18,978 nt of DNA from the IMG/VR virus record IMGVR_UViG_2657245081_000003. One strand, 5' to 3'. This document shows positions 1,513-17,660 of this stretch, piece after piece. The stretch's first letter is position 1, and every line of letters begins with the position of its first letter. The stretch comes from a virus (lineage: Duplodnaviria; Heunggongvirae; Uroviricota; Caudoviricetes). A program made the position numbers and the translations under genes. The notes under the pieces were generated by a model that ran no database searches, had not been told where the DNA came from, and saw only the letters and a program-made list of their open reading frames with translations.

Positions 1513-2099
1513 AACCCCACCTCGCAGACAAAGCGGGTGTAAATTGAGGGAATACAACGTATCGCAAAAAAGCAGAAACGTAACAGACTCGGAGTCAGTG
1601 AATAACTCAGGTATTGGGTTATCAGCTAATATCGAGACTCAAAAAATGGAAAAATCCGCTCGACGGCGGGTTTAAGCTGTGTGACGAAGTAACCACTCTT
1701 AACAGCATAACCAATTTTTTACGTACGTAAACCACTAAATGATATTTGCGAGAATGCTACCGAGTATTGAAAACACCACTACAAATACATAAGCAAATCT
1801 CAACAAATAACCAACAAATAATTTCCAGCGTTATTTTTAGCTGGTTTAAATTGAATCTTCAAATTATAGAGCACTTATAAATAACAGCCATTAATATAAA
1901 TTGGCTAATAGATTTATTTTTATTCAGCCAAGAGCCATGAATAGGATTCGATAGAAAAAGTTCAGATAAAAATAGAGATCTACTTCACAAATCAAATGAG
2001 AAACCAAAACTTACATCTTGAAATAATCACATTGATTAGATGAATATTTATCGCGCAGTGACATCATTTTTTAATAATAGTTCAAAAAAAGGGCTCACG

Positions 2100-3182
2100 A
2101 TGAAAAAATTAACAGTGGCAATTTCTGCTGTAGCTGCATCAGTACTGATGGCGATGTCTGCTCAGGCAGCTGAAATTTATAATAAAGACAGTAACAAGCT
2201 GGATCTGTACGGGAAAGTTAATGCTAAGCACTACTTCTCCTCTAATGATGCAGATGATGGTGATACTACTTATGCCCGTCTTGGCTTCAAAGGTGAAACC
2301 CAAATCAACGATCAACTGACTGGTTTCGGTCAGTGGGAATATGAATTCAAAGGCAACCGCGCTGAATCTCAAGGTTCCTCCAAAGATAAAACCCGTCTTG
2401 CCTTCGCTGGCCTGAAATTCGGTGACTACGGCTCCATCGATTATGGCCGTAACTACGGTGTAGCATACGATATTGGTGCATGGACCGACGTTCTGCCAGA
2501 ATTCGGTGGCGATACCTGGACCCAAACAGATGTATTCATGACTGGTCGCACCACAGGTGTTGCAACTTATCGTAACAATGACTTCTTTGGTCTGGTTGAT
2601 GGTCTGAACTTTGCTGCTCAGTATCAGGGTAAAAATGACCGCACTGACGTAACTGAAGCTAATGGTGATGGTTTCGGTTTCTCCACTACTTATGAGTATG
2701 AAGGATTCGGTGTAGGTGCAACCTATGCTAAATCTGACCGCACTAATAATCAGGTTATCTACGGTAACAACAGCCTGAATGCATCTGGTCAAAATGCTGA
2801 AGTATGGGCAGCTGGTCTGAAATATGATGCGAACAACATCTATCTGGCTACCACCTATTCTGAAACCCAGAACATGACTGTTTTTGGTAATAACCATATT
2901 GCCAACAAAGCACAAAACTTCGAAGTAGTTGCACAATATCAGTTCGACTTCGGTCTGCGTCCGTCCGTTGCTTACCTGCAATCTAAAGGAAAAGACTTGG
3001 GTGCGTGGGGTGATCAGGACTTGGTTGAATATATTGATGTAGGTGCAACCTATTACTTCAACAAAAATATGTCCACTTTTGTTGATTACAAAATCAACCT
3101 GATTGATAAGAGCGATTTCACGAAAGCATCTGGCGTTGCTACCGATGATATCGTTGCTGTAGGTATGGTTTACCAGTTCTAA
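2100..3182 (+). CDS. nmpC: Outer-membrane general porin, phage-encoded Lc/NmpC type (OmpC/OmpF/PhoE family)
   Basis: Translation [47 protein letters not shown]... ...VGMVYQF has a signal peptide ending AQA, a porin-family body and a C-terminal aromatic residue (F) typical of beta-barrel OMPs. It sits between Q and S on the opposite strand, as nmpC does in DLP12. Start chosen at ATG 2100 (AGGG SD) rather than the track's 2040. Confidence 0.9.
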
Positions 3183-3370: not shown

Positions 3371-3754
3371 TTAATTAGAGTTATTAACAACGATATCCAT
3401 CTCTAACCGGATATCTAATGCCATTAACATCCCTTCAATTATGCCCTCAGCCTTCTGTAACCTTTTCCCGATATAACCATCAGAGCAGCAATGCTTACCT
3501 GCCAGTGACATGAATGTCATACCGACTACATAATAATCTACTAATAAATCGTGCAAATCGCTGTTGTTCTTTTTCAGACGGGCCATGCACCCGCAAATGA
3601 TCATCGCGTCATCGTCACAACATTGCGGGCGAGATTTTACTTTTGAAGTAATTAATCCCTTAAAACCGGCGGCAATGGACGACCAGGTCACATCTTCATG
3701 ATTATTAGCCGCCCACGCTCCCCAACGCTCAAGAACCATCTGAATATCACGCAT
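3371..3754 (-). CDS. Q: Late-gene antiterminator Q (phage 21/82 - DLP12 QuuD type)
   Basis: Translation [64 protein letters not shown]... matches DLP12 QuuD from memory, with cysteine-rich zinc-binding motifs. The ATG at 3754 is preferred over the upstream TTG at 3769. Confidence 0.85.
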
Positions 3755-3839
3755 CAACTTACTCCACAAAAATCAGACCAGAACGCCAATTACAAGCAAA
3801 AATCAACAAAACAGTATTAGTTGATTGTTATCTCTGACT

Positions 3840-5519: not shown

Positions 5520-6938
5520 ATGAAATATTTCTCAACTGGTTTTTATGTTTCAAACTCCACATCTCTAGCTGAGATCTTTAATGAATGTTTTTCTTGGGTA
5601 AACGACTCACCACATACAACTTTTATTCCAGCACAATTAGTATGTGATTATAAAAGCGAGGAGTACTTCATAGAGTCTAAAAATGAAAGAATTGATATAA
5701 TAACTTATAAAAACAAAGATACTAGTTTAGGCTGTTTTAGGTATTCGAAAATATCTGAGCCACACAAATGGGTAACAGATATTTCAATTAATAAAAATCT
5801 CAAAACTGATACCATGTGGATTCAGGTGGAATCTAGCGTTGTAAGCCAAGATGCAGCTTATCTAGCCCCGCAACCTAAGAAACCATTAGTTGTTATGAGA
5901 TTGATTGATAAATTTTCTGGTGGTCTTGATGATATTTTCAAGGTGTCAGTCGAACCTCATTCCTTAGATGATACTGATGAACATTTAAATATAGCAGCTA
6001 AAGTTATAAATGGTGAAACTGACAACAGACTACCAATAATATACGTTAGCTCCAAGTATTTTTTTAATGAACATGCTCACAATATCATCCCAGAACGCCT
6101 TGCAAGAAAGGTATGCGGATTAGCACATGTATTAATTGAGCCTAGCAATAGACTATTTTCTATTAAGCTAAAAAATGAGACAAATGCTAAAAATGCCTAT
6201 GCTGGTGCTGTTGGTATCTATTGGCCACGGGGTCAAAATATCAGTTTTTATCGCCGTGGTGAGAAAACCGCAAAAGAATTTGAAGATGAGTTATTTGATG
6301 ATGTTGTAAGAGCTACGACTACAATGGCTCCTGTCTCAGATAGTGGATGGAGTGAGATACAAACCAGAAAAACGAAAGACTCTATTAACTCACTCAAAGA
6401 AAGAGGAGAATACACACGCGAACTGATGGCGCTTTACGAAGCCGATAATGTTGCGAAAGATGACCAAATAGAAGATCTTAAGCATAAGATCTCCTCTTTA
6501 GAGCACAGAGTACGCACTCTTCAATCACAAGCTTCAGCCCAAGGAAGCATTGTGCTTAATGCTGGTGAAGAGACTGATTTTTTTGATGGAGAAATCAAAA
6601 ATATAATTATTGACGCACTAAAAACTGCCATAAAAAATAAAAATGAATTTGGTAGAAGCTACCATATCTTATCATCCCTAATTGCCAATAATGAATACAA
6701 TAAAGAAACCGAGAGTCGCCGCCAATTACTTAAAAGGACTTTAACAGGTTACAGAAGCATGGATAGCGCAACACAAAGAAATTTAAAGGACTTAGGTTTC
6801 AGTGCGTCAAGCGATGGAAAACACTGGAAGTTAACATATAATGAAGACCCTCGATATTCCTATATTTTACCTAAAACAGGAAGTGACCACAGAGGTTCTT
6901 TAAATGCTATCTCGGATATAGCAAACATTATTTTCTAA
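5520..6938 (+). CDS. Hypothetical protein, 472 aa, no recognisable family; AT-rich accessory gene (moron), candidate phage-defence or exclusion function
   Basis: Long uninterrupted ORF with SD AAGGA 7 nt upstream of the ATG and strongly AT-biased codons unlike the neighbours. It is on the strand opposite to the surrounding operon and is followed by a perfect hairpin. A predicted coiled-coil segment is present (ELMALYEADNVAKDDQIEDLKHKISSLEHRVRTLQSQ). No Walker A or other motif recognised by eye. Confidence 0.75.
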   Translation: MKYFSTGFYVSNSTSLAEIFNECFSWVNDSPHTTFIPAQLVCDYKSEEYFIESKNERIDIITYKNKDTSLGCFRYSKISEPHKWVTDISINKNLKTDTMWIQVESSVVSQDAAYLAPQPKKPLVVMRLIDKFSGGLDDIFKVSVEPHSLDDTDEHLNIAAKVINGETDNRLPIIYVSSKYFFNEHAHNIIPERLARKVCGLAHVLIEPSNRLFSIKLKNETNAKNAYAGAVGIYWPRGQNISFYRRGEKTAKEFEDELFDDVVRATTTMAPVSDSGWSEIQTRKTKDSINSLKERGEYTRELMALYEADNVAKDDQIEDLKHKISSLEHRVRTLQSQASAQGSIVLNAGEETDFFDGEIKNIIIDALKTAIKNKNEFGRSYHILSSLIANNEYNKETESRRQLLKRTLTGYRSMDSATQRNLKDLGFSASSDGKHWKLTYNEDPRYSYILPKTGSDHRGSLNAISDIANIIF

Positions 6939-8294: not shown

Positions 8295-9220
8295 AAATCC
8301 ACCCCGTAAATCCAGTCAGTGTTTGTCAGGTCGAGTTTTGATTTTCCGGCTATCACGCCAGCCTGTTGCTTGTTACGGTTGATTTCGAGTTGGGTCCACT
8401 TGTCGCGGAGTTTGGCCGGACTTAGCACGTTACCGGACCAGAAGTTGTCCTGGCATGCCCAGCGGAACAGCACGCACATGTCGCGGTGGTTACGGCCGTC
8501 ACGTTCACGCATCAGGCGGATATCGTTAGCCCACCCTGCAAAATTCGGTTTTCTGGCTGATGGCGCGATGGTCTTCACCATGTCAAACATCCACTCTGCG
8601 GCGGTCAGGTCTTCTGCTGTCCCCCACCTGCTGCCGCTCTGAATTGCAGCATCTGGTTTCTCCACAGGAAGATCGTTTTCTGGTTGGTCAGAGGATTCGC
8701 CAGAATTCTCGGACGAAAAAGGTTTTATATTGTCTTTTGTTAGTTTGTATTTTGTGTTTACCTGATTCGGGTAAGTGCCTTTACCTGATTTGGGTAAACT
8801 TTTCTTACCTGATTCAGGTAAATTTACCTCTTTCAGGTAAACTTTATTTTTCTTACCTGATTCGGGTAATGTTGACCATTCACTGACCACATTATTAATG
8901 CCGATATTCCGCCCGCTCTGAATAAAAATCCCACGCTTTACCAGAACACTTTTTGCAGCAGAACACTTGTGCGGCAATATCCCGGTCAACTCGGAAAGTT
9001 GCTCGTTGCTCACCCAATCCAGTTTTTTATTAAAGCCATATGTTTTGCGCATGACAGCCAGGAAGACCAGAAGCTGGTGCTGTGTTAATCCGGCCAGCAT
9101 CACAGCTTCCAGCAACTCATTTGCAATGCGCGTATAACCATCATCGAGATCTGCCACGCGCGGCTCCTTTTGTGCCGCATCCGGCACTGGAAAATTGAAT
9201 ATCTCAGCAGTGTTTGCCAT
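8291..9220 (-). CDS. O: Replication initiator O (origin-binding protein); the gene contains the origin iterons
   Basis: Start chosen at MANTAEIFNFPVPD... (ATG 9220, SD GGGAGG upstream) rather than the longer track ORF. The C-terminal half ...AAEWMFDMVKTIAPSARKPNFAGWANDIRLMRERDGRNHRDMCVLFRWACQDNFWSGNVLSPAKLRDKWTQLEINRNKQQ... is lambda-O-like from memory. The repeated LPESGKK peptide is encoded by the iterons. Confidence 0.9.
   Translation of the reverse strand: MANTAEIFNFPVPDAAQKEPRVADLDDGYTRIANELLEAVMLAGLTQHQLLVFLAVMRKTYGFNKKLDWVSNEQLSELTGILPHKCSAAKSVLVKRGIFIQSGRNIGINNVVSEWSTLPESGKKNKVYLKEVNLPESGKKSLPKSGKGTYPNQVNTKYKLTKDNIKPFSSENSGESSDQPENDLPVEKPDAAIQSGSRWGTAEDLTAAEWMFDMVKTIAPSARKPNFAGWANDIRLMRERDGRNHRDMCVLFRWACQDNFWSGNVLSPAKLRDKWTQLEINRNKQQAGVIAGKSKLDLTNTDWIYGVDL
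8748..8859. repeat. Origin of replication iterons: five ~17-bp dyad-symmetric repeats (consensus TTACCTGATTCGGGTAA) inside the O gene, flanked by an AT-rich tract (8700-8747)
   Basis: Copies start at 8748, 8771, 8795, 8814 and 8843 (TTACCTGATTCGGGTAA, TTACCTGATTTGGGTAA, TTACCTGATTCAGGTAA, TTACCTCTTTCAGGTAA, TTACCTGATTCGGGTAA). Relative to O transcription the AT-rich region is downstream of the iterons, as in ori-lambda. Confidence 0.8.
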
Positions 9221-9846: not shown

Positions 9847-9915
9847 AATTGACTCCTTTAGTTTGAATTGACTGTTAAGTTGATTGCTTATTGTTAAAGA
9901 GCGTGAAATGGAAAT

Positions 9916-10146
9916 TTAAGCTGCGTTCTTTTCGGTGTGTGGAAACAACTTCGGAAGATCCGGGCGAATCTGGTATGCCTTCACAACTCCACCAGTAGCC
10001 GTAACAATGCTGCCGACATGTTCAGGGGATACCTTTGCTTTGTTGTGAAGCCACTTATAGACGGCCTGCTGTGAAACTTCGCAGGCATCGCCTAGTTTCT
10101 TTTGTGAACCAACGATATTGATCGCTGTTTTGATTGCTGGGTTCAT
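9916..10146 (-). CDS. cro: Cro-like repressor (YdaS/DUF1019-type HTH)
   Basis: Translation MNPAIKTAINIVGSQKKLGDACEVSQQAVYKWLHNKAKVSPEHVGSIVTATGGVVKAYQIRPDLPKLF... has the HTH core GSQKKLGDACEVSQQAVYKW. Divergent from cI across the operator region; SD GGAGG. Confidence 0.8.
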   Translation of the reverse strand: MNPAIKTAINIVGSQKKLGDACEVSQQAVYKWLHNKAKVSPEHVGSIVTATGGVVKAYQIRPDLPKLFPHTEKNAA

Positions 10147-10250
10147 AACAACCTCCGTGGTTAATCCGAATAAAGATTAAAACTATGGTTGTTTTTAGTC
10201 AACAACCATTTTCGTTTGATGAAATAAAACCTTGGTTGTACATTTGATCT
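10147..10250. promoter_or_regulatory. Immunity control region (OR): divergent pR/pRM candidates and operator palindromes
   Basis: Palindrome ATGGTTGTT-N7-AACAACCAT at 10185-10209, with further GGTTGT/ACAACC half-sites at 10147-10160 and 10233-10240. Candidate pR on the - strand: -35 TTGACT (10197-10202), 17-bp spacer, -10 TAATCT (10174-10179). Candidate pRM on the + strand: -35 TTGATG (10216-10221), -10 TACATT (10239-10244), which would give a leaderless cI mRNA starting at the ATG, as for lambda pRM. Confidence 0.55.
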
Positions 10251-10940
10251 ATGAAAACAACACTCTCAGAAAGACTTAAAGAAGCCAGATTAGCGCGAGG
10301 CCTTACACAAAAGGCGCTTGGGGATTTGGTCGGGGTTAGCCAGGCTGCTATTCAGAAAATCGAAACAGGGAAAGCTAACCAAACAACTAAAATCGTGGAG
10401 ATCGCGAACGCTTTGGGTGTGCGCGCAGAATGGTTATCTTCTGGCGTTGGAAATATGTCAGACAGTACAGTGCAACCAATACAATCAACTGTCAGCCATT
10501 CCAAATACTTCAAAATTGACGTTCTTGATATAGAAGTCAGTGCCGGGCCAGGTGTAATCAACCGTGAGTTTGTAGAAGTTCTACGCTCGGTTGAGTACTC
10601 GTTTGACGATGCTCGTCACATGTTCGATGGCAGGAAGGCGGAAAATATCCGCATCATTAACGTGCGAGGTGACAGCATGTCAGGGACGATCGAACCAGGT
10701 GACCTGCTGTTCGTTGATATCACTGTTAAATCTTTCGACGGTGATGGCATCTATGCGTTTCTGTACGACGACACTGCCCATGTAAAACGTCTTCAAATGA
10801 TGAAGGATAAGCTGCTGGTTATCTCTGATAACAAGAGCTACTCGCCGTGGGACCCGATCGAGAAAGACGAGATGAACCGGGTGTTCATATTCGGTAAGGT
10901 CATTGGAAGCATGCCGCAGACGTACAGGAAGCATGGTTAA
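10251..10940 (+). CDS. cI: CI prophage repressor (N-terminal HTH, C-terminal LexA-like S24 autopeptidase domain)
   Basis: Translation MKTTLSERLKEARLARGLTQKALGDLVGVSQAAIQKIETGKANQ... has an HTH, then a linker, then the S24 motifs RGDSMSGTIEPGDLLFVD and HVKRL (Ser/Lys dyad). Confidence 0.9.
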   Translation: MKTTLSERLKEARLARGLTQKALGDLVGVSQAAIQKIETGKANQTTKIVEIANALGVRAEWLSSGVGNMSDSTVQPIQSTVSHSKYFKIDVLDIEVSAGPGVINREFVEVLRSVEYSFDDARHMFDGRKAENIRIINVRGDSMSGTIEPGDLLFVDITVKSFDGDGIYAFLYDDTAHVKRLQMMKDKLLVISDNKSYSPWDPIEKDEMNRVFIFGKVIGSMPQTYRKHG

Positions 10941-11169: not shown

Positions 11170-11550
11170 ATGAGAAAAATCCTAATCGCTGCCATGATGG
11201 CATCTGTATTGGCTGGGTGTGCTTCTTCAGGCAACCAGCAACTCAAAAATGAAACTGAAATTAGTGTCCAGTCTAAACTTCAGGAAGGTAAAACAACCAA
11301 GAATGAGGTTAAATCTTACTTTGGTTCTCCTGATGCTGTTTCATATACTGACAGTGGAAACGAGATCTGGAAGTACGCCTTTGCAAAAGTAAAAGTTAAT
11401 GGCACCACTTTTATTCCATTCTATGGATTATTCCATAATGGAACGAACGGTACGAAAAAAGAACTTACTATTCTTTTTAACGATGACACGATTAAGAAAT
11501 ACACAATGTCAGAAACCCAAATAAACTCGAAATCAGGTTGGGCTGACTGA
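11170..11550 (+). CDS. Lipoprotein (126 aa), AT-rich moron at the rexAB position downstream of cI; possible BamE/SmpA-OmlA-like fold; candidate superinfection-exclusion factor
   Basis: Translation MRKILIAAMMASVLAGCASSGNQQ... has a signal peptide with lipobox LAGC; the mature part is hydrophilic. Followed directly by a rho-independent terminator. Confidence 0.75.
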   Translation: MRKILIAAMMASVLAGCASSGNQQLKNETEISVQSKLQEGKTTKNEVKSYFGSPDAVSYTDSGNEIWKYAFAKVKVNGTTFIPFYGLFHNGTNGTKKELTILFNDDTIKKYTMSETQINSKSGWAD

Positions 11551-11557
11551 TAATCAT

Positions 11558-11584
11558 ACCCGGCAACCGCGCCGGGTTTTCTTT
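11558..11584 (+). terminator. Rho-independent terminator (CCCGGC-aaccgc-GCCGGG + TTTTCTTTTCC)
   Basis: Read directly, 8 nt after the lipoprotein stop. Confidence 0.75.
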
Positions 11585-11710
11585 TCCTCCCCCTCATAAC
11601 TCATACCGTCCAAAAAACCACCACACCTCACTTCAGTTATCGCTATGCGATGCAAGTCACAAAATAAATCCATCCTAAATACAACCAGTTATATTTAAAA
11701 CAACCGACAA

Positions 11711-11753
11711 AACAACTTTTGTTGTTGACGATAAAACAACTATAGTTTTAAAT
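11711..11753 (+). promoter_or_regulatory. Candidate pL/OL: palindrome AACAAC-tttt-GTTGTT overlapping -35 TTGACG (11724-11729), 17-bp spacer, -10 TTAAAT (11748-11753)
   Basis: Read directly; it shares the AACAAC/GTTGTT half-site with the OR region, as expected for CI operators. Confidence 0.45.
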
Positions 11754-11860
11754 TAAATTCATCGCAACGACACAACGATACGGTAACCACCTGTTTCACC
11801 GTTGCGATGACCGCTTAGATCCGCAGTTTGAATTTCAGCAGGCTTCGGGGAGTGCGAGGG

Positions 11861-12238
11861 GTGAAACGGACGCGTGAACGTCGGTGTGACCAGCTGAAAT
11901 CAACACAACACTTTATACCTCAGTCGCTTCAACGAGGCGGCTTAGTTATGACAACCGGCGGCCATCCACCGCCTGAATACGCGCAGAAGTCTCTATATGT
12001 TCAGCAGCCCAGCTTACGGGCAGGAGTTTTTATGGTTCATCAACATTACGGAACGCAGACCGTTAATCGCGGTGCGGTCATGCCAGGAATGCTGGTCAAA
12101 CACAAAGATGGTACCTGGACTGCATCAGCTAATTTACGCGGACGGCTTTATCTGCATCGCGGCATCGAGCGCACTTATACCCGTGATTTGCTCGTAGAAG
12201 TTTTTCTCGACGGACGCGGTAACGGCCTGAATCACTAA
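11861..12238 (+). CDS. N-position early protein, putative N-like antiterminator (GTG start; alternative ATG start at 11948 gives 96 aa)
   Basis: First gene downstream of candidate pL. From GTG 11861 (SD GGGGAG 9 nt upstream) the N-terminus is [13 protein letters not shown], an arginine-rich stretch resembling the N-protein ARM (lambda TRRRERR). The rest is not recognisably N-like. Confidence 0.4.
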
Positions 12239-12313
12239 TCCCCTTTCCTGTTTTCCTAATCAGCCTGGCATTTCGCGGGCGATATTTTCACAGCCATTTT
12301 CAGGAGTTCAGCC

Positions 12314-12610
12314 ATGAACGCTTATTACATTCAGGATCGTCTTGAGGCTCAGAGCTGGGCGCGTCACTACCAGCAGATCGCCCGTGAAGAGAAAGAGGCA
12401 GAACTGGCAGACGACATGGAAAAAGGCCTGCCCCAGCACCTGTTTGAATCGCTATGCATCGATCATTTGCAACGCCACGGGGTCAGCAAAAAAGCCATTA
12501 CCCGTGCGTTTGATGACGATGTTGAGTTTCAGGAGCGCATGGCAGAACACATCCGGTACATGGTTGAAACCATTGCTCACCACCAGGTTGATATTGATTC
12601 AGAGGTATAA
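12314..12610 (+). CDS. gam: Gam (RecBCD inhibitor), short GamS-length form
   Basis: Translation [56 protein letters not shown]... ...[10 protein letters not shown] matches lambda Gam from memory. The upstream in-frame region is closed by a TAA at 12257-12259. Confidence 0.9.
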
Positions 12611-14713: not shown

Positions 14714-14811
14714 ACATGAAAAGCAAAATCATCAGGGAGCTACAGGCTCCTTTTTTATTATTCGCATTCACCCTCAAGCGTATTAACCAACAATTCAGGG
14801 ATTAATGAAAG

Positions 14812-15846: not shown

Positions 15847-16051
15847 TACTTACTGCACAATAATACACAAAATTGCGTAAATTTTTTGCATGGATTTTAG
15901 CTCTTTCAGCCGACATTTAAGGGGTAAATAGCATTTCCTAAAAGCAACTGCACCAACCCAACAGAATGGGCTACCGCTTACGTTGAGAGCAAAAAAGTGT
16001 ATAGCAGCAATGAACAGCATCCTCGCACTGACGAGGATTTCTTTTATCTGA

Positions 16052-16073
16052 ACTCGCTACGGCGAGTTTTTTT
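16052..16073 (+). terminator. Rho-independent terminator-like hairpin (ACTCGC-tacg-GCGAGT + TTTTTTT)
   Basis: Read directly, in the non-coding remnant region between the membrane-protein gene and xis. Confidence 0.45.
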
Positions 16074-16245
16074 ATGGAGATGATAAATGCACTTCCGAGT
16101 CACAGGTGAATAGAATGGAGAACCATTCAACAGAGTTATCGAAGCCGAGAACATCAGCGACTGCTATGACCACTGGATGCTGTGGGCGCAGATAGCACAT
16201 GCAGACGTAACCAATATTCGAATTGAAGAACTGAAAGAACACCAA

Positions 16246-16267
16246 GCCGCCTGATGGCGGTTTTTTC
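16246..16267 (+). terminator. Rho-independent terminator-like hairpin (GCCGCC-tgat-GGCGGT + TTTTTTC) immediately upstream of xis
   Basis: Read directly; 6-bp stem including one G-U pair, followed by a T-tract. Confidence 0.5.
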
Positions 16268-17560: not shown

Positions 17561-17660
17561 TGATTTTATTTTGACTGATAGTGACCTGTTCGTTGCAACA
17601 AATTGATAAGCAATGCTTTTTTATAATGCCAACTTAGTATAAAAAAGCAGGCTTCAACGG
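17561..17660. other. attL: attL (B-O-P'): lambda P' arm and 15-bp core in reverse orientation, then host B arm
   Basis: Core TTAGTATAAAAAAGC at 17634-17648 is the reverse complement of the lambda core GCTTTTTTATACTAA. The preceding ~70 bp reverse-complement to the lambda P' arm (...GTTGGCATTATAAAAAAGCATTGCTTATCAATTTGTTGCAACGAACAGGTCACTATCAGTCAAAATAAAATCA) as recalled from memory. Confidence 0.85.

Follow-up and report, generated by a model that had tools for sequence, protein, structure and literature searches.

The KilR protein of the Escherichia coli Rac prophage, an inhibitor of FtsZ and of cell elongation with a length of 73 amino acids (aa; PMC12482147), is encoded early in a repressor-controlled leftward operon, ahead of recombination genes, and its gene adjoins a cro/cII pair of the YdaS/YdaT type; the long structured 5′ untranslated region (UTR) upstream of kilR yields a small RNA (sRNA), KilS (PMC8175672), annotated in the E. 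coli K-12 record (L083, 4406–4503) as a 98-nt sRNA with its own terminator. In phage lambda, N and nutL lie between the leftward operators and promoter (OL/pL) and gam-bet-exo, and in HK022, which has no N, the putL RNA lies directly after pL and forms two adjacent stem-loops from the 5′ end of the transcript; the put RNAs act in cis, binding the β′ zinc-binding domain of RNA polymerase and suppressing pausing and termination. Here we compare with these systems the interval at positions 11585–12313 of IMG/VR virus record IMGVR_UViG_2657245081_000003, a stretch of 18,978 nt that we call the window. We assign the region with high confidence, as regards both gene and operon identity, to an N-less lambdoid prophage of the Bievrevirus / PhiR26_1 type, in which it opens the leftward early (pL) operon. 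Our best reading, which we hold tentatively, is that an ordinary KilR-type kil gene stands behind a two-part regulatory leader whose 5′ end would be capped by a hairpin. The arrangement is common, and sequences and partial annotations of it already exist; new are the delineation of the leader modules, a covarying motif of two hairpins (H1 and H2), and the question of how a family with neither N nor put deals with its terminators.

The features of the interval are as follows.

11710–11726 and 11734–11750, no strand: OL operators, AAACAACTTTTGTTGTT and AAACAACTATAGTTTTA, a 17-mer family shared with sites between cI and cro
11725–11753, + strand: pL promoter from a promoter scan, with −35 TTGACG (11725–11730), a 17-nt spacer and −10 TTAAAT (11748–11753)
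11759–11810, + strand: stem-loop SL1, the inverted repeat as RNA, in which 11761–11769 pairs with 11800–11808 around a 30-nt C-rich loop
11761–11911, + strand: 5′ leader module, with SL1, SL2 (11810–11863) and SL3 (11866–11885) predicted, then an A/C-rich tail
11812–11820, + strand: string CGCTTAGAT, proposed earlier as boxA-like; it matches CGCT only and is no credible boxA
11914–11993, + strand: two-hairpin RNA element, made of UAUACCU, H1 (11922–11930 / 11934–11942), UUAGUUAUGACAACC, H2 (11957–11961 / 11969–11973, loop CCAUCCA) and GCGCAGAAGUCU (11981–11992)
11948–11950, + strand: AUG within the element, opening a mini open reading frame (ORF) of 20–21 codons in HK225, phi80 and HK639
12007–12026, + strand: small hairpin GCCC-AGCUUAC-GGGC, read from the sequence, abutting the kil Shine-Dalgarno sequence AGGAG (12022–12026)
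12032–12238, + strand: kil, KilR-family cell-division (FtsZ) inhibitor of 68 aa, a coding sequence (CDS) of 207 nt
12314–12610, + strand: gam (Pfam Gam, E 1.4e-64), which comes after kil in the operon and has bet and exo behind it

A first-pass annotation of this DNA had described a single ORF between pL and gam, regarded it as an unusual gene in the position of N, and listed kil among the missing genes. The single ORF is borne out by a survey of all ORFs of at least 20 aa, in which no other looks real, and this one is itself kil: an ordinary KilR-type gene starting at ATG 12032, with a predicted function as FtsZ inhibitor. The open frame 11828–12238 matches PHROG 294 (‘Kil protein for bacterial septation inhibition’) with E 1.8e-38 over its last 77 residues only (profile positions 4–80 of 83); NCBIfam NF008465, the Rac KilR family, aligns from Met 12032 (profile positions 1–70 of 73, E 1.8e-17), and in a BLASTP comparison the K-12 Rac KilR is 36% identical, with the two proteins aligned from their first residues (E 9e-13). 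Because the NF008465 score is 63 bits against a subfamily cut-off of 92, we assign the window’s kil on sequence grounds to a sister subfamily of Rac KilR; its RefSeq name is ‘phage encoded cell division inhibitor protein’. Like Rac KilR, the product is a small basic protein of the same length class, encoded early in a repressor-controlled leftward operon ahead of recombination genes, near a YdaS/YdaT-type cro/cII pair and behind a long structured 5′ UTR; the difference is that here kil is the very first gene after pL. By inspection, the KilS sRNA has no apparent sequence similarity to the window’s leader. The position directly upstream of gam-bet-exo recurs in 80+ related loci. Kil proteins of this class block assembly of the FtsZ ring and make cells filament, an activity predicted for the window’s protein.

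The start codon is fixed by comparison. The kil genes of Citrobacter, Kluyvera, Enterobacter, Silvania and Pseudocitrobacter are 79–87% identical to that of the window, and ATG 12032 is the exact point at which nucleotide homology with these loci sets in; a Shine-Dalgarno sequence of its own precedes kil in each of them, and further upstream the sequences are unrelated. In the window the AGGAG lies 5 nt ahead of the ATG. A 5-nt insertion after 11899, found in 5 of 69 distinct E. coli relatives, breaks the frame that leads from GTG 11861, and the 68-aa CDS is the one annotated by RefSeq and by the Lambda_4C10 record. The arginine-rich stretch KRTRERR, which the first-pass annotation had read as an N-terminus beginning at GTG 11861, is therefore untranslated leader. 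The reading in which translation does begin at GTG 11861 (or TTG 11828), and yields an N-like RNA-binding antiterminator fused to Kil, draws on the open frame that extends from 11828 into kil, on the resemblance of KRTRERR to an arginine-rich motif and on the GenBank phage records, which differ on the length of kil (125, 96 or 68 aa). We give it almost no credence, as both profiles align only from Met 12032, the ORF with its upstream extension has no Pfam match at E ≤1, the extension is missing from other species and out of frame in some relatives, the GAGGG directly against the GTG is poorly spaced, and there is no boxB partner. In the corrected annotation the gene is set at 68 aa, and the supposedly missing kil is the sole gene present.

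The system that holds this position in lambda is absent. Searches by tblastn with lambda N, CIII, Ral, Ea10, SieB and lambda-type Kil found no homologue anywhere in the window, while Gam and orf61 were found by the same search. No N protein was found in the whole 48-kb genome of PhiR26_1, a plaque-forming phage with lambda-type structural genes whose region is 99.5% identical to the window’s, and lambda N, phi80 N and other first-gene products gave no tblastn match. The idea that the leader is the decayed remnant of N or of another first-gene ORF was likewise rejected, tblastn with nine first-gene products from relatives giving no match. A scan of the leader (11757–12031) for boxA (YGCTCTTTAACAA) returned no match with three or fewer mismatches. 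Neither a standard N homologue in the window nor a canonical nut site in the pL leader thus turned up, and the first-pass annotation was right that the pL leader has no canonical nut site, although its boxA-like string is not a boxA. Its picture of a minimal pL operon also stands for N, nutL, cIII, ral, sieB and the lambda type of kil, and fails for kil as such, a KilR-type gene being present. The locus thus shares with lambda its genome position between OL/pL and gam-bet-exo and, on the pR side, a perfect boxA at the position of nutR; it differs in having no N homologue and no boxA or boxB in the pL leader, and its pR boxA lacks a boxB and is nearer to rrn-type, Nus-factor-only antitermination.

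The candidate pL of the first-pass annotation is well supported by two 17-bp operators (11710–11726 and 11734–11750) that match the operators between cI and cro and are both overlapped by the TTGACG-17-TTAAAT promoter. One base separates AAACAACTATAGTTTTA from AAACAACCATAGTTTTA at 10178–10194, between cI and cro, and the 17-mer family (28 matches against 7.8 expected) clusters only at OL and in the cI–cro gap (10146–10240; four sites). The cI repressor would bind the two operators; upon induction, a transcript predicted from promoter spacing to start at about A11761, the third base of the left arm of the repeat, would run through a 271-nt untranslated leader into kil and on into gam, bet and exo. 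The border between immunity-specific and conserved sequence lies at ~11760, and this one leader is found behind at least three operator/promoter types that are unrelated to each other.

The first-pass annotation had looked for RNA structure in a large inverted repeat near the start of this leader. The best-supported structured RNA of the interval is not that repeat; it is the two-hairpin element further downstream (11914–11993). Across phages this element comprises CAUACCU, H1 (9 bp, variable at its base and conserved at its apex), UUAGUUAUGACAACC, a nearly invariant H2 (GGCGG-CCAUCCA-CCGCC) and GCGCAGAAGUCU. Homologues occur in phi80 (inside the ‘t-L1 regulatory signal’), HK225, HK639 (‘terminator’), a P22-like Salmonella phage and phages of Klebsiella and Enterobacter; in those phages the first pL gene ends in a canonical intrinsic terminator, and the element lies directly after it, with kil or another small gene downstream. 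It is present in N-type, put-type and N-less lambdoid phages. A covariance model built on it, R2, scores 90.6 bits in the window and finds 33 instances in all in the lambdoid loci searched, 32 of them outside the window (L220:2483–2572, L221:1368–1459, L222:2503–2595, L223:1503–1585, L224:1487–1564, L225:1500–1577 and 26 IMG/VR loci). Among the 29 distinct sequences, in an alignment fitted to the model and hence favouring the structure, 98% of cells hold standard pairs, against 80% in shuffles and 38–54% with slid partners, seven of the nine H1 pairs are changed on both sides, and the observed covariation score, 0.524 against 0.173, is reached by 0 of 500 shuffles. Compensatory changes in the element are visible already in an ordinary MAFFT alignment.

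Although the homologues in the phi80 tL1 region (GenBank M11919) and in the HK639 ‘terminator’ (HM208537) share with the window a covarying H1 and a nearly invariant H2 (in phi80, with one substitution in its 3′ arm), the window lacks the canonical intrinsic terminator that precedes the element there, and its H2 has no U-run after it; the element is therefore no simple intrinsic terminator in this phage. The AUG within it is nearly always present, one homologue having AUC, and in the window AUG 11948 is in frame with kil, which would allow a 96-aa isoform. A conserved leader peptide (MTTGGHPPP, with polyproline stalling) was considered and rejected: indels that are not multiples of three lie between the AUG and H2, the downstream motif is read in three frames, and one homologue has lost the AUG. 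Closer to the gene, a small hairpin with a Shine-Dalgarno sequence, comparable to that at 12007–12026, stands ahead of kil in HK225, HK639 and the Klebsiella and Kluyvera-type loci. Together, the two-hairpin element and the hairpin that abuts the Shine-Dalgarno sequence plausibly set the level of toxic Kil. The element belongs to no Rfam family, and over the whole window Rfam gives no match at gathering thresholds, with noise only at E ≤10 over the leader; we regard it as a well-supported, widespread RNA motif candidate just ahead of a toxic gene.

The first part of the leader, the 5′ module, is distributed differently. It opens with the inverted repeat, which is exactly as first described: a perfect 11-bp repeat, TCATCGCAACG (11759–11769) and CGTTGCGATGA (11800–11810), with 30 nt between the arms, and one of only four in the 19-kb window among perfect inverted repeats of at least 10 bp with arms no more than 60 nt apart. 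As RNA, the stem is AUCGCAAC(G) / (C)GUUGCGAU, 8–9 bp from the predicted +1, and the window’s variant folds with −14.7 kcal/mol (z −2.4). Folding z-scores were discarded as a test of function because a genuine putL scores only z −0.68. Of 5426 complete E. coli genomes, 2239 carry the leader from +1 to kil, as do 16 sequenced phages; the 5′ module is present in 2210 of the 5426 (~41%), each copy being ~94% identical or more. Among 50,697 phage records searched with sensitive blastn, only those 16 phages contain the module. No homologue was detected in non-E. coli phages or in the other-species kil loci examined, and more diverged copies that could inform on covariation are found neither in the phage records nor in the 5426 E. 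coli genomes. With sequences this uniform, the structure of the 5′ module can be neither proved nor dismissed.

Variation at the promoter junction bears on the hairpin. In the two common promoter types the base 7 nt past the −10 hexamer is A, or G (giving a G-U pair), and opens the stem AUCGCAAC / GUUGCGAU; in a third, O157-type promoter the left arm is replaced, and in the minimum-energy fold the unchanged 3′ arm pairs with AUUGCA, the 5′ end predicted for that transcript. The stem thus starts within ~0–2 nt of the predicted 5′ end in three promoter types, where the start is inferred from −10 spacing only. The frequent polymorphisms of the 5′ module fall at unpaired positions or are compatible with wobble pairing (A11761G, for example, in 17 of 69 distinct relatives). 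In phage D2 (L096, 3130–3480) the whole leader is kept through the ATG with a different gene after it, from a lambda-type kil region, and the recombination joint therefore lies exactly at the start codon. Other N-less, kil-first prophages of the Enterobacteriaceae (L088, L089, L091, L226–L305) carry a different, short conserved leader with a 5′ CAUCG… hairpin, then GUUCCGCCAGCCUGGCGACAAGG and the kil Shine-Dalgarno sequence; a start of CATCG followed by A/C-rich sequence is common to many unrelated pL leaders. A general rule that related pL leaders begin with a 5′ hairpin does not hold, as HK639 has such a hairpin and its close relative L130 does not. A Rho-utilisation (rut) attenuator in the leader was also considered and has no particular support, as the peak C/G ratio, 1.73, ranks at about the 90th percentile for the window and the leader is G-rich in its middle. 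Literature searches on the genus, on kil leaders and on the prophage sRNAs AgvB, Pas and EcOnc yielded nothing on this leader.

The first-pass annotation had suggested a cis-acting element of the HK022 put type. As no Rfam family detects HK022’s own put, we built a put model: HK022 putL and putR were located via the primer and residue numbering in PMC9378689, 68 distinct put sequences were collected from viral contigs, and 18 of these were aligned into a covariance model, R1, whose consensus has two stems and a conserved CGAACGGC…GUCGGG.GC.CGGCG…CAAUG core. R1 recovers HK022 putL with 97 bits, HK022 putR with 78 bits and the diverged putL-like RNA of HK639 with 68 bits. On 11757–12031, with filters off, it reports nothing at E ≤10 (the best match in the window, 12.4 bits, lies inside gene O), and it reports nothing on the whole PhiR26_1 genome or on the related loci. 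A second copy of the leader downstream of pR was sought by blastn-short against the rest of the window, with chance 9–11-mers as the only matches. Since R1 finds no put here and there is no pR-side copy, the leader is not a member of the put family.

The functional analogy with put, by contrast, gains an argument from position. In three viral contigs (L130, 4160–4400 on the − strand; L153; L142) the two-hairpin element follows putL without a gap, and the junction, …ACUUU|CAUACCU, matches the window’s; the order is pL-putL-element-kil, with no nun or other first gene and no terminator, a minimal put-driven operon that parallels the window. In phi80, HK225, HK639 and others this slot holds a first gene and its intrinsic terminator, downstream of nutL or putL. 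Because the junction in the three contigs is that of the window, the slot before the element can be said to be filled by nutL, N and a terminator, by putL with a first gene and terminator, by putL alone, or by the 5′ module of the window. Like put, the 5′ module lies directly after pL, from the predicted +1, contains adjacent predicted stem-loops, belongs to a phage without N and, as in some put phages, directly precedes the two-hairpin element; it differs in matching R1 in neither sequence nor structure, in having no second copy past pR and in being about twice as long, and antitermination by the module is a proposal by analogy.

Two terminators and a boxA lie outside the leader.

11558–11587, + strand: intrinsic terminator at the end of the cI-lipoprotein transcript (moron in the rex slot), a 7-bp G+C-rich stem followed by TTTCTTTTCC, adjoining OL/pL upstream
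14734–14758, + strand: intrinsic terminator with an 8-bp stem and T7, between the orf61-like and traR-like genes
9891–9903, − strand: perfect rrn-type boxA CGCUCUUUAACAA (CGCTCTTTAACAA) in the pR transcript, 13 nt past the cro stop codon, at the nutR position

Strong intrinsic terminators lie upstream of xis and int in the pL operon at 14734–14758, 16050–16069 and 16244–16263 (all + strand). The first of these is 100% identical to lambda 30667–30691, which we take to be the mapped site of rho-independent tL3, and is present in PhiR26_1 with one mismatch. Unless partial read-through is sufficient or there are separate promoters, the phage needs some means of passing these terminators. On the pR side, the boxA at 9891–9903 is the only zero-mismatch match in the window (~0.001 expected by chance, by our own estimate); no boxB-like or G+C hairpin was found after it. 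Relatives that share the cro module have it too; Lambda_4C10-type immunity regions lack it and carry a G+C hairpin at that place. On this sequence evidence, Nus factors without N may protect the pR transcript against Rho.

What, then, might the hairpin at the start of the pL transcript do? In our preferred reading the inverted repeat would fold into a stem-loop in which pairing begins with the initial base of the transcript. A 5′-terminal stem-loop would cap the pL transcript against 5′-end-dependent decay by RppH and RNase E, and would also form the first domain of a long regulatory 5′ UTR. Stem-loops of the ompA 5′ UTR type (Emory, Bouvet and Belasco 1992) reportedly stabilise mRNAs; the window’s hairpin resembles them in starting at, or 1–2 nt from, the predicted 5′ end of a long 5′ UTR, and differs in its unusually large loop (30 nt), in the 8-bp stem of about −8.6 kcal/mol of its common variant and in a 5′ end that is predicted. 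Rac kilR, with its structured, KilS-yielding 5′ UTR, is a precedent. That the hairpin has a stabilising or regulatory role is possible, but we would not lean heavily on it, and a series of observations weighs against it. The pL start itself is a prediction only. Position 11769 is A in 63 of 69 distinct relatives, which reduces the DNA arm to 10 bp and makes the eleventh pair an A-C mismatch; this common variant, at −8.6 kcal/mol (z −0.6), is no more stable than shuffled sequence. RNAalifold on the 5′ module finds a compensatory double change in 0 of 30 predicted pairs. Of the structured RNA proposed in the first-pass annotation, what stands is that the repeat is part of the transcribed leader and is able to fold into an RNA hairpin. 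As to its conservation in related phages, the repeat is kept in most relatives; the left arm is missing in about 8% of genomes, O157-type prophages lack it, and the viable, plaque-forming PhiR26_1 has a mismatch in the stem (T11803G). Because all 2210 copies of the module are ~94% identical or more, recent descent and selection cannot be separated. Finally, a stabiliser leaves unexplained how a phage with neither N nor put reads through the lambda-identical terminator at 14734–14758.

Most of these observations are what one would expect if the repeat had no function of its own, and were a product of chance or of hitch-hiking in a young, nearly clonal leader that spreads with kil-gam-bet-exo by recombination among E. 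coli prophages; the left arm moreover overlaps the CATCG plus A/C-rich start of many unrelated pL leaders, with or without a partner arm. We nevertheless consider such a repeat unlikely to be idle, given a stem that opens precisely with the predicted +1 base in two promoter types, pairing that persists in the third although the 5′ end is replaced, common polymorphisms that avoid paired positions or keep the wobble, and phage D2, whose retention of the whole leader with a swapped gene suggests that the leader is a unit kept for its own sake. The terminator problem, for its part, would be solved if the 5′ module, hairpin included, were a new cis-acting processive antiterminator RNA, put-like but unrelated to put, standing in for N/nutL and modifying RNA polymerase on its departure from pL so that downstream terminators are passed. 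It occupies, with the same junction, the slot held by putL in L130, L153 and L142; the phage has neither N nor put as another device, and strong terminators, one of them 100% identical to lambda’s, to pass before xis and int; like putL (PMC9378689), the module starts at the predicted +1 with adjacent stem-loops, and a weak folding z-score is no counter-argument when genuine putL scores as it does. We still judge this reading doubtful, although worth pursuing, as the module has no similarity to put by covariance model, no covariation, no second copy past pR, where the same problem arises, a stem mismatch in a viable phage and no left arm in O157-type prophages; other N-less, kil-first prophages (Kluyvera and Citrobacter types) manage with short, unrelated leaders, and read-through may be partial or xis and int may have a promoter of their own. 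The wider proposal, that the 150-nt 5′ module, unrelated to put, gives lambdoid phages a third and so far unrecognised means of early antitermination besides N/nut and put, with the pR operon relying on a bare rrn-type boxA, seems to us similarly improbable. Least probable of these readings, and by our estimate very unlikely, is that the repeat acts as DNA, a site just past the pL start for a dimeric protein (as a second operator, or for a Cro/YdaS-like or CII/YdaT-like regulator or a host factor). Its perfect dyad symmetry does span the predicted +1, and a weak leftward promoter-like match, TTGCGA-17-TATAGT, overlaps the left arm; that match, however, is not kept with the second type of promoter, the arms bear no relation to the cI operators and have no other copy in the window, the distance of 41 bp between their centres is unusual for one dimer site, and the variants A11761G and C11760T keep RNA pairing (G-U) but would break the DNA symmetry. 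We keep to kil behind a two-part regulatory leader as the preferred reading.

The terminators give the locus its wider interest. Roughly two-fifths of sequenced E. coli carry a lambdoid family that lacks both N and put and still has a lambda-identical terminator in its early-left operon, and our literature search found no paper on how this N-less, put-less family passes its terminators. Should the 5′ module act in antitermination, it would be a new kind of RNA that modifies RNA polymerase; otherwise these phages show that partial read-through together with a bare boxA is enough for a lambda-like life cycle.

The rest of the window is a lambda-like prophage early region, oriented as written with pL rightward, and is laid out as follows.

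− strand, in order: Rz, endolysin, holin, Q (3371–3769), rusA, HNH gene, ninB, ren, P, O, YdaT-like cII, YdaS-like cro (9916–10146)
+ strand: cI (10251–10940), then the BamE-like lipoprotein gene (11170–11550) and the terminator at 11558–11587
Downstream of kil: gam, bet, exo, orf60a/63/61 homologues, TraR-like gene, a small leftward-reading insert, xis, int

Several slots in this layout carry cargo that varies among relatives. The BamE-like lipoprotein gene (11170–11550, + strand) occupies the rex slot between cI and OL, which in relatives holds other cargo, such as a SIR2-family gene in O157:H7. A rightward insert at 5520–6938 (+ strand) in the leftward pR/late region encodes a 472-aa protein almost without family match, and the same slot in PhiR26_1 holds the defence gene PD-lambda-1. 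Another rightward insert (2040–3182, + strand), between Q and holin, encodes a 380-aa PHROG 410 protein where PhiR26_1 has an OmpD-like porin. Inside gene O, at 8757–8841, lies a cluster of TTTACCTGATT(C/T)GGGTAA repeats in both orientations, presumably the iterons of a replication origin. Just past int, at 17614–17649, a perfect 12-bp inverted repeat (TGCTTTTTTATA / TATAAAAAAGCA) probably marks the attachment site or the end of the prophage.

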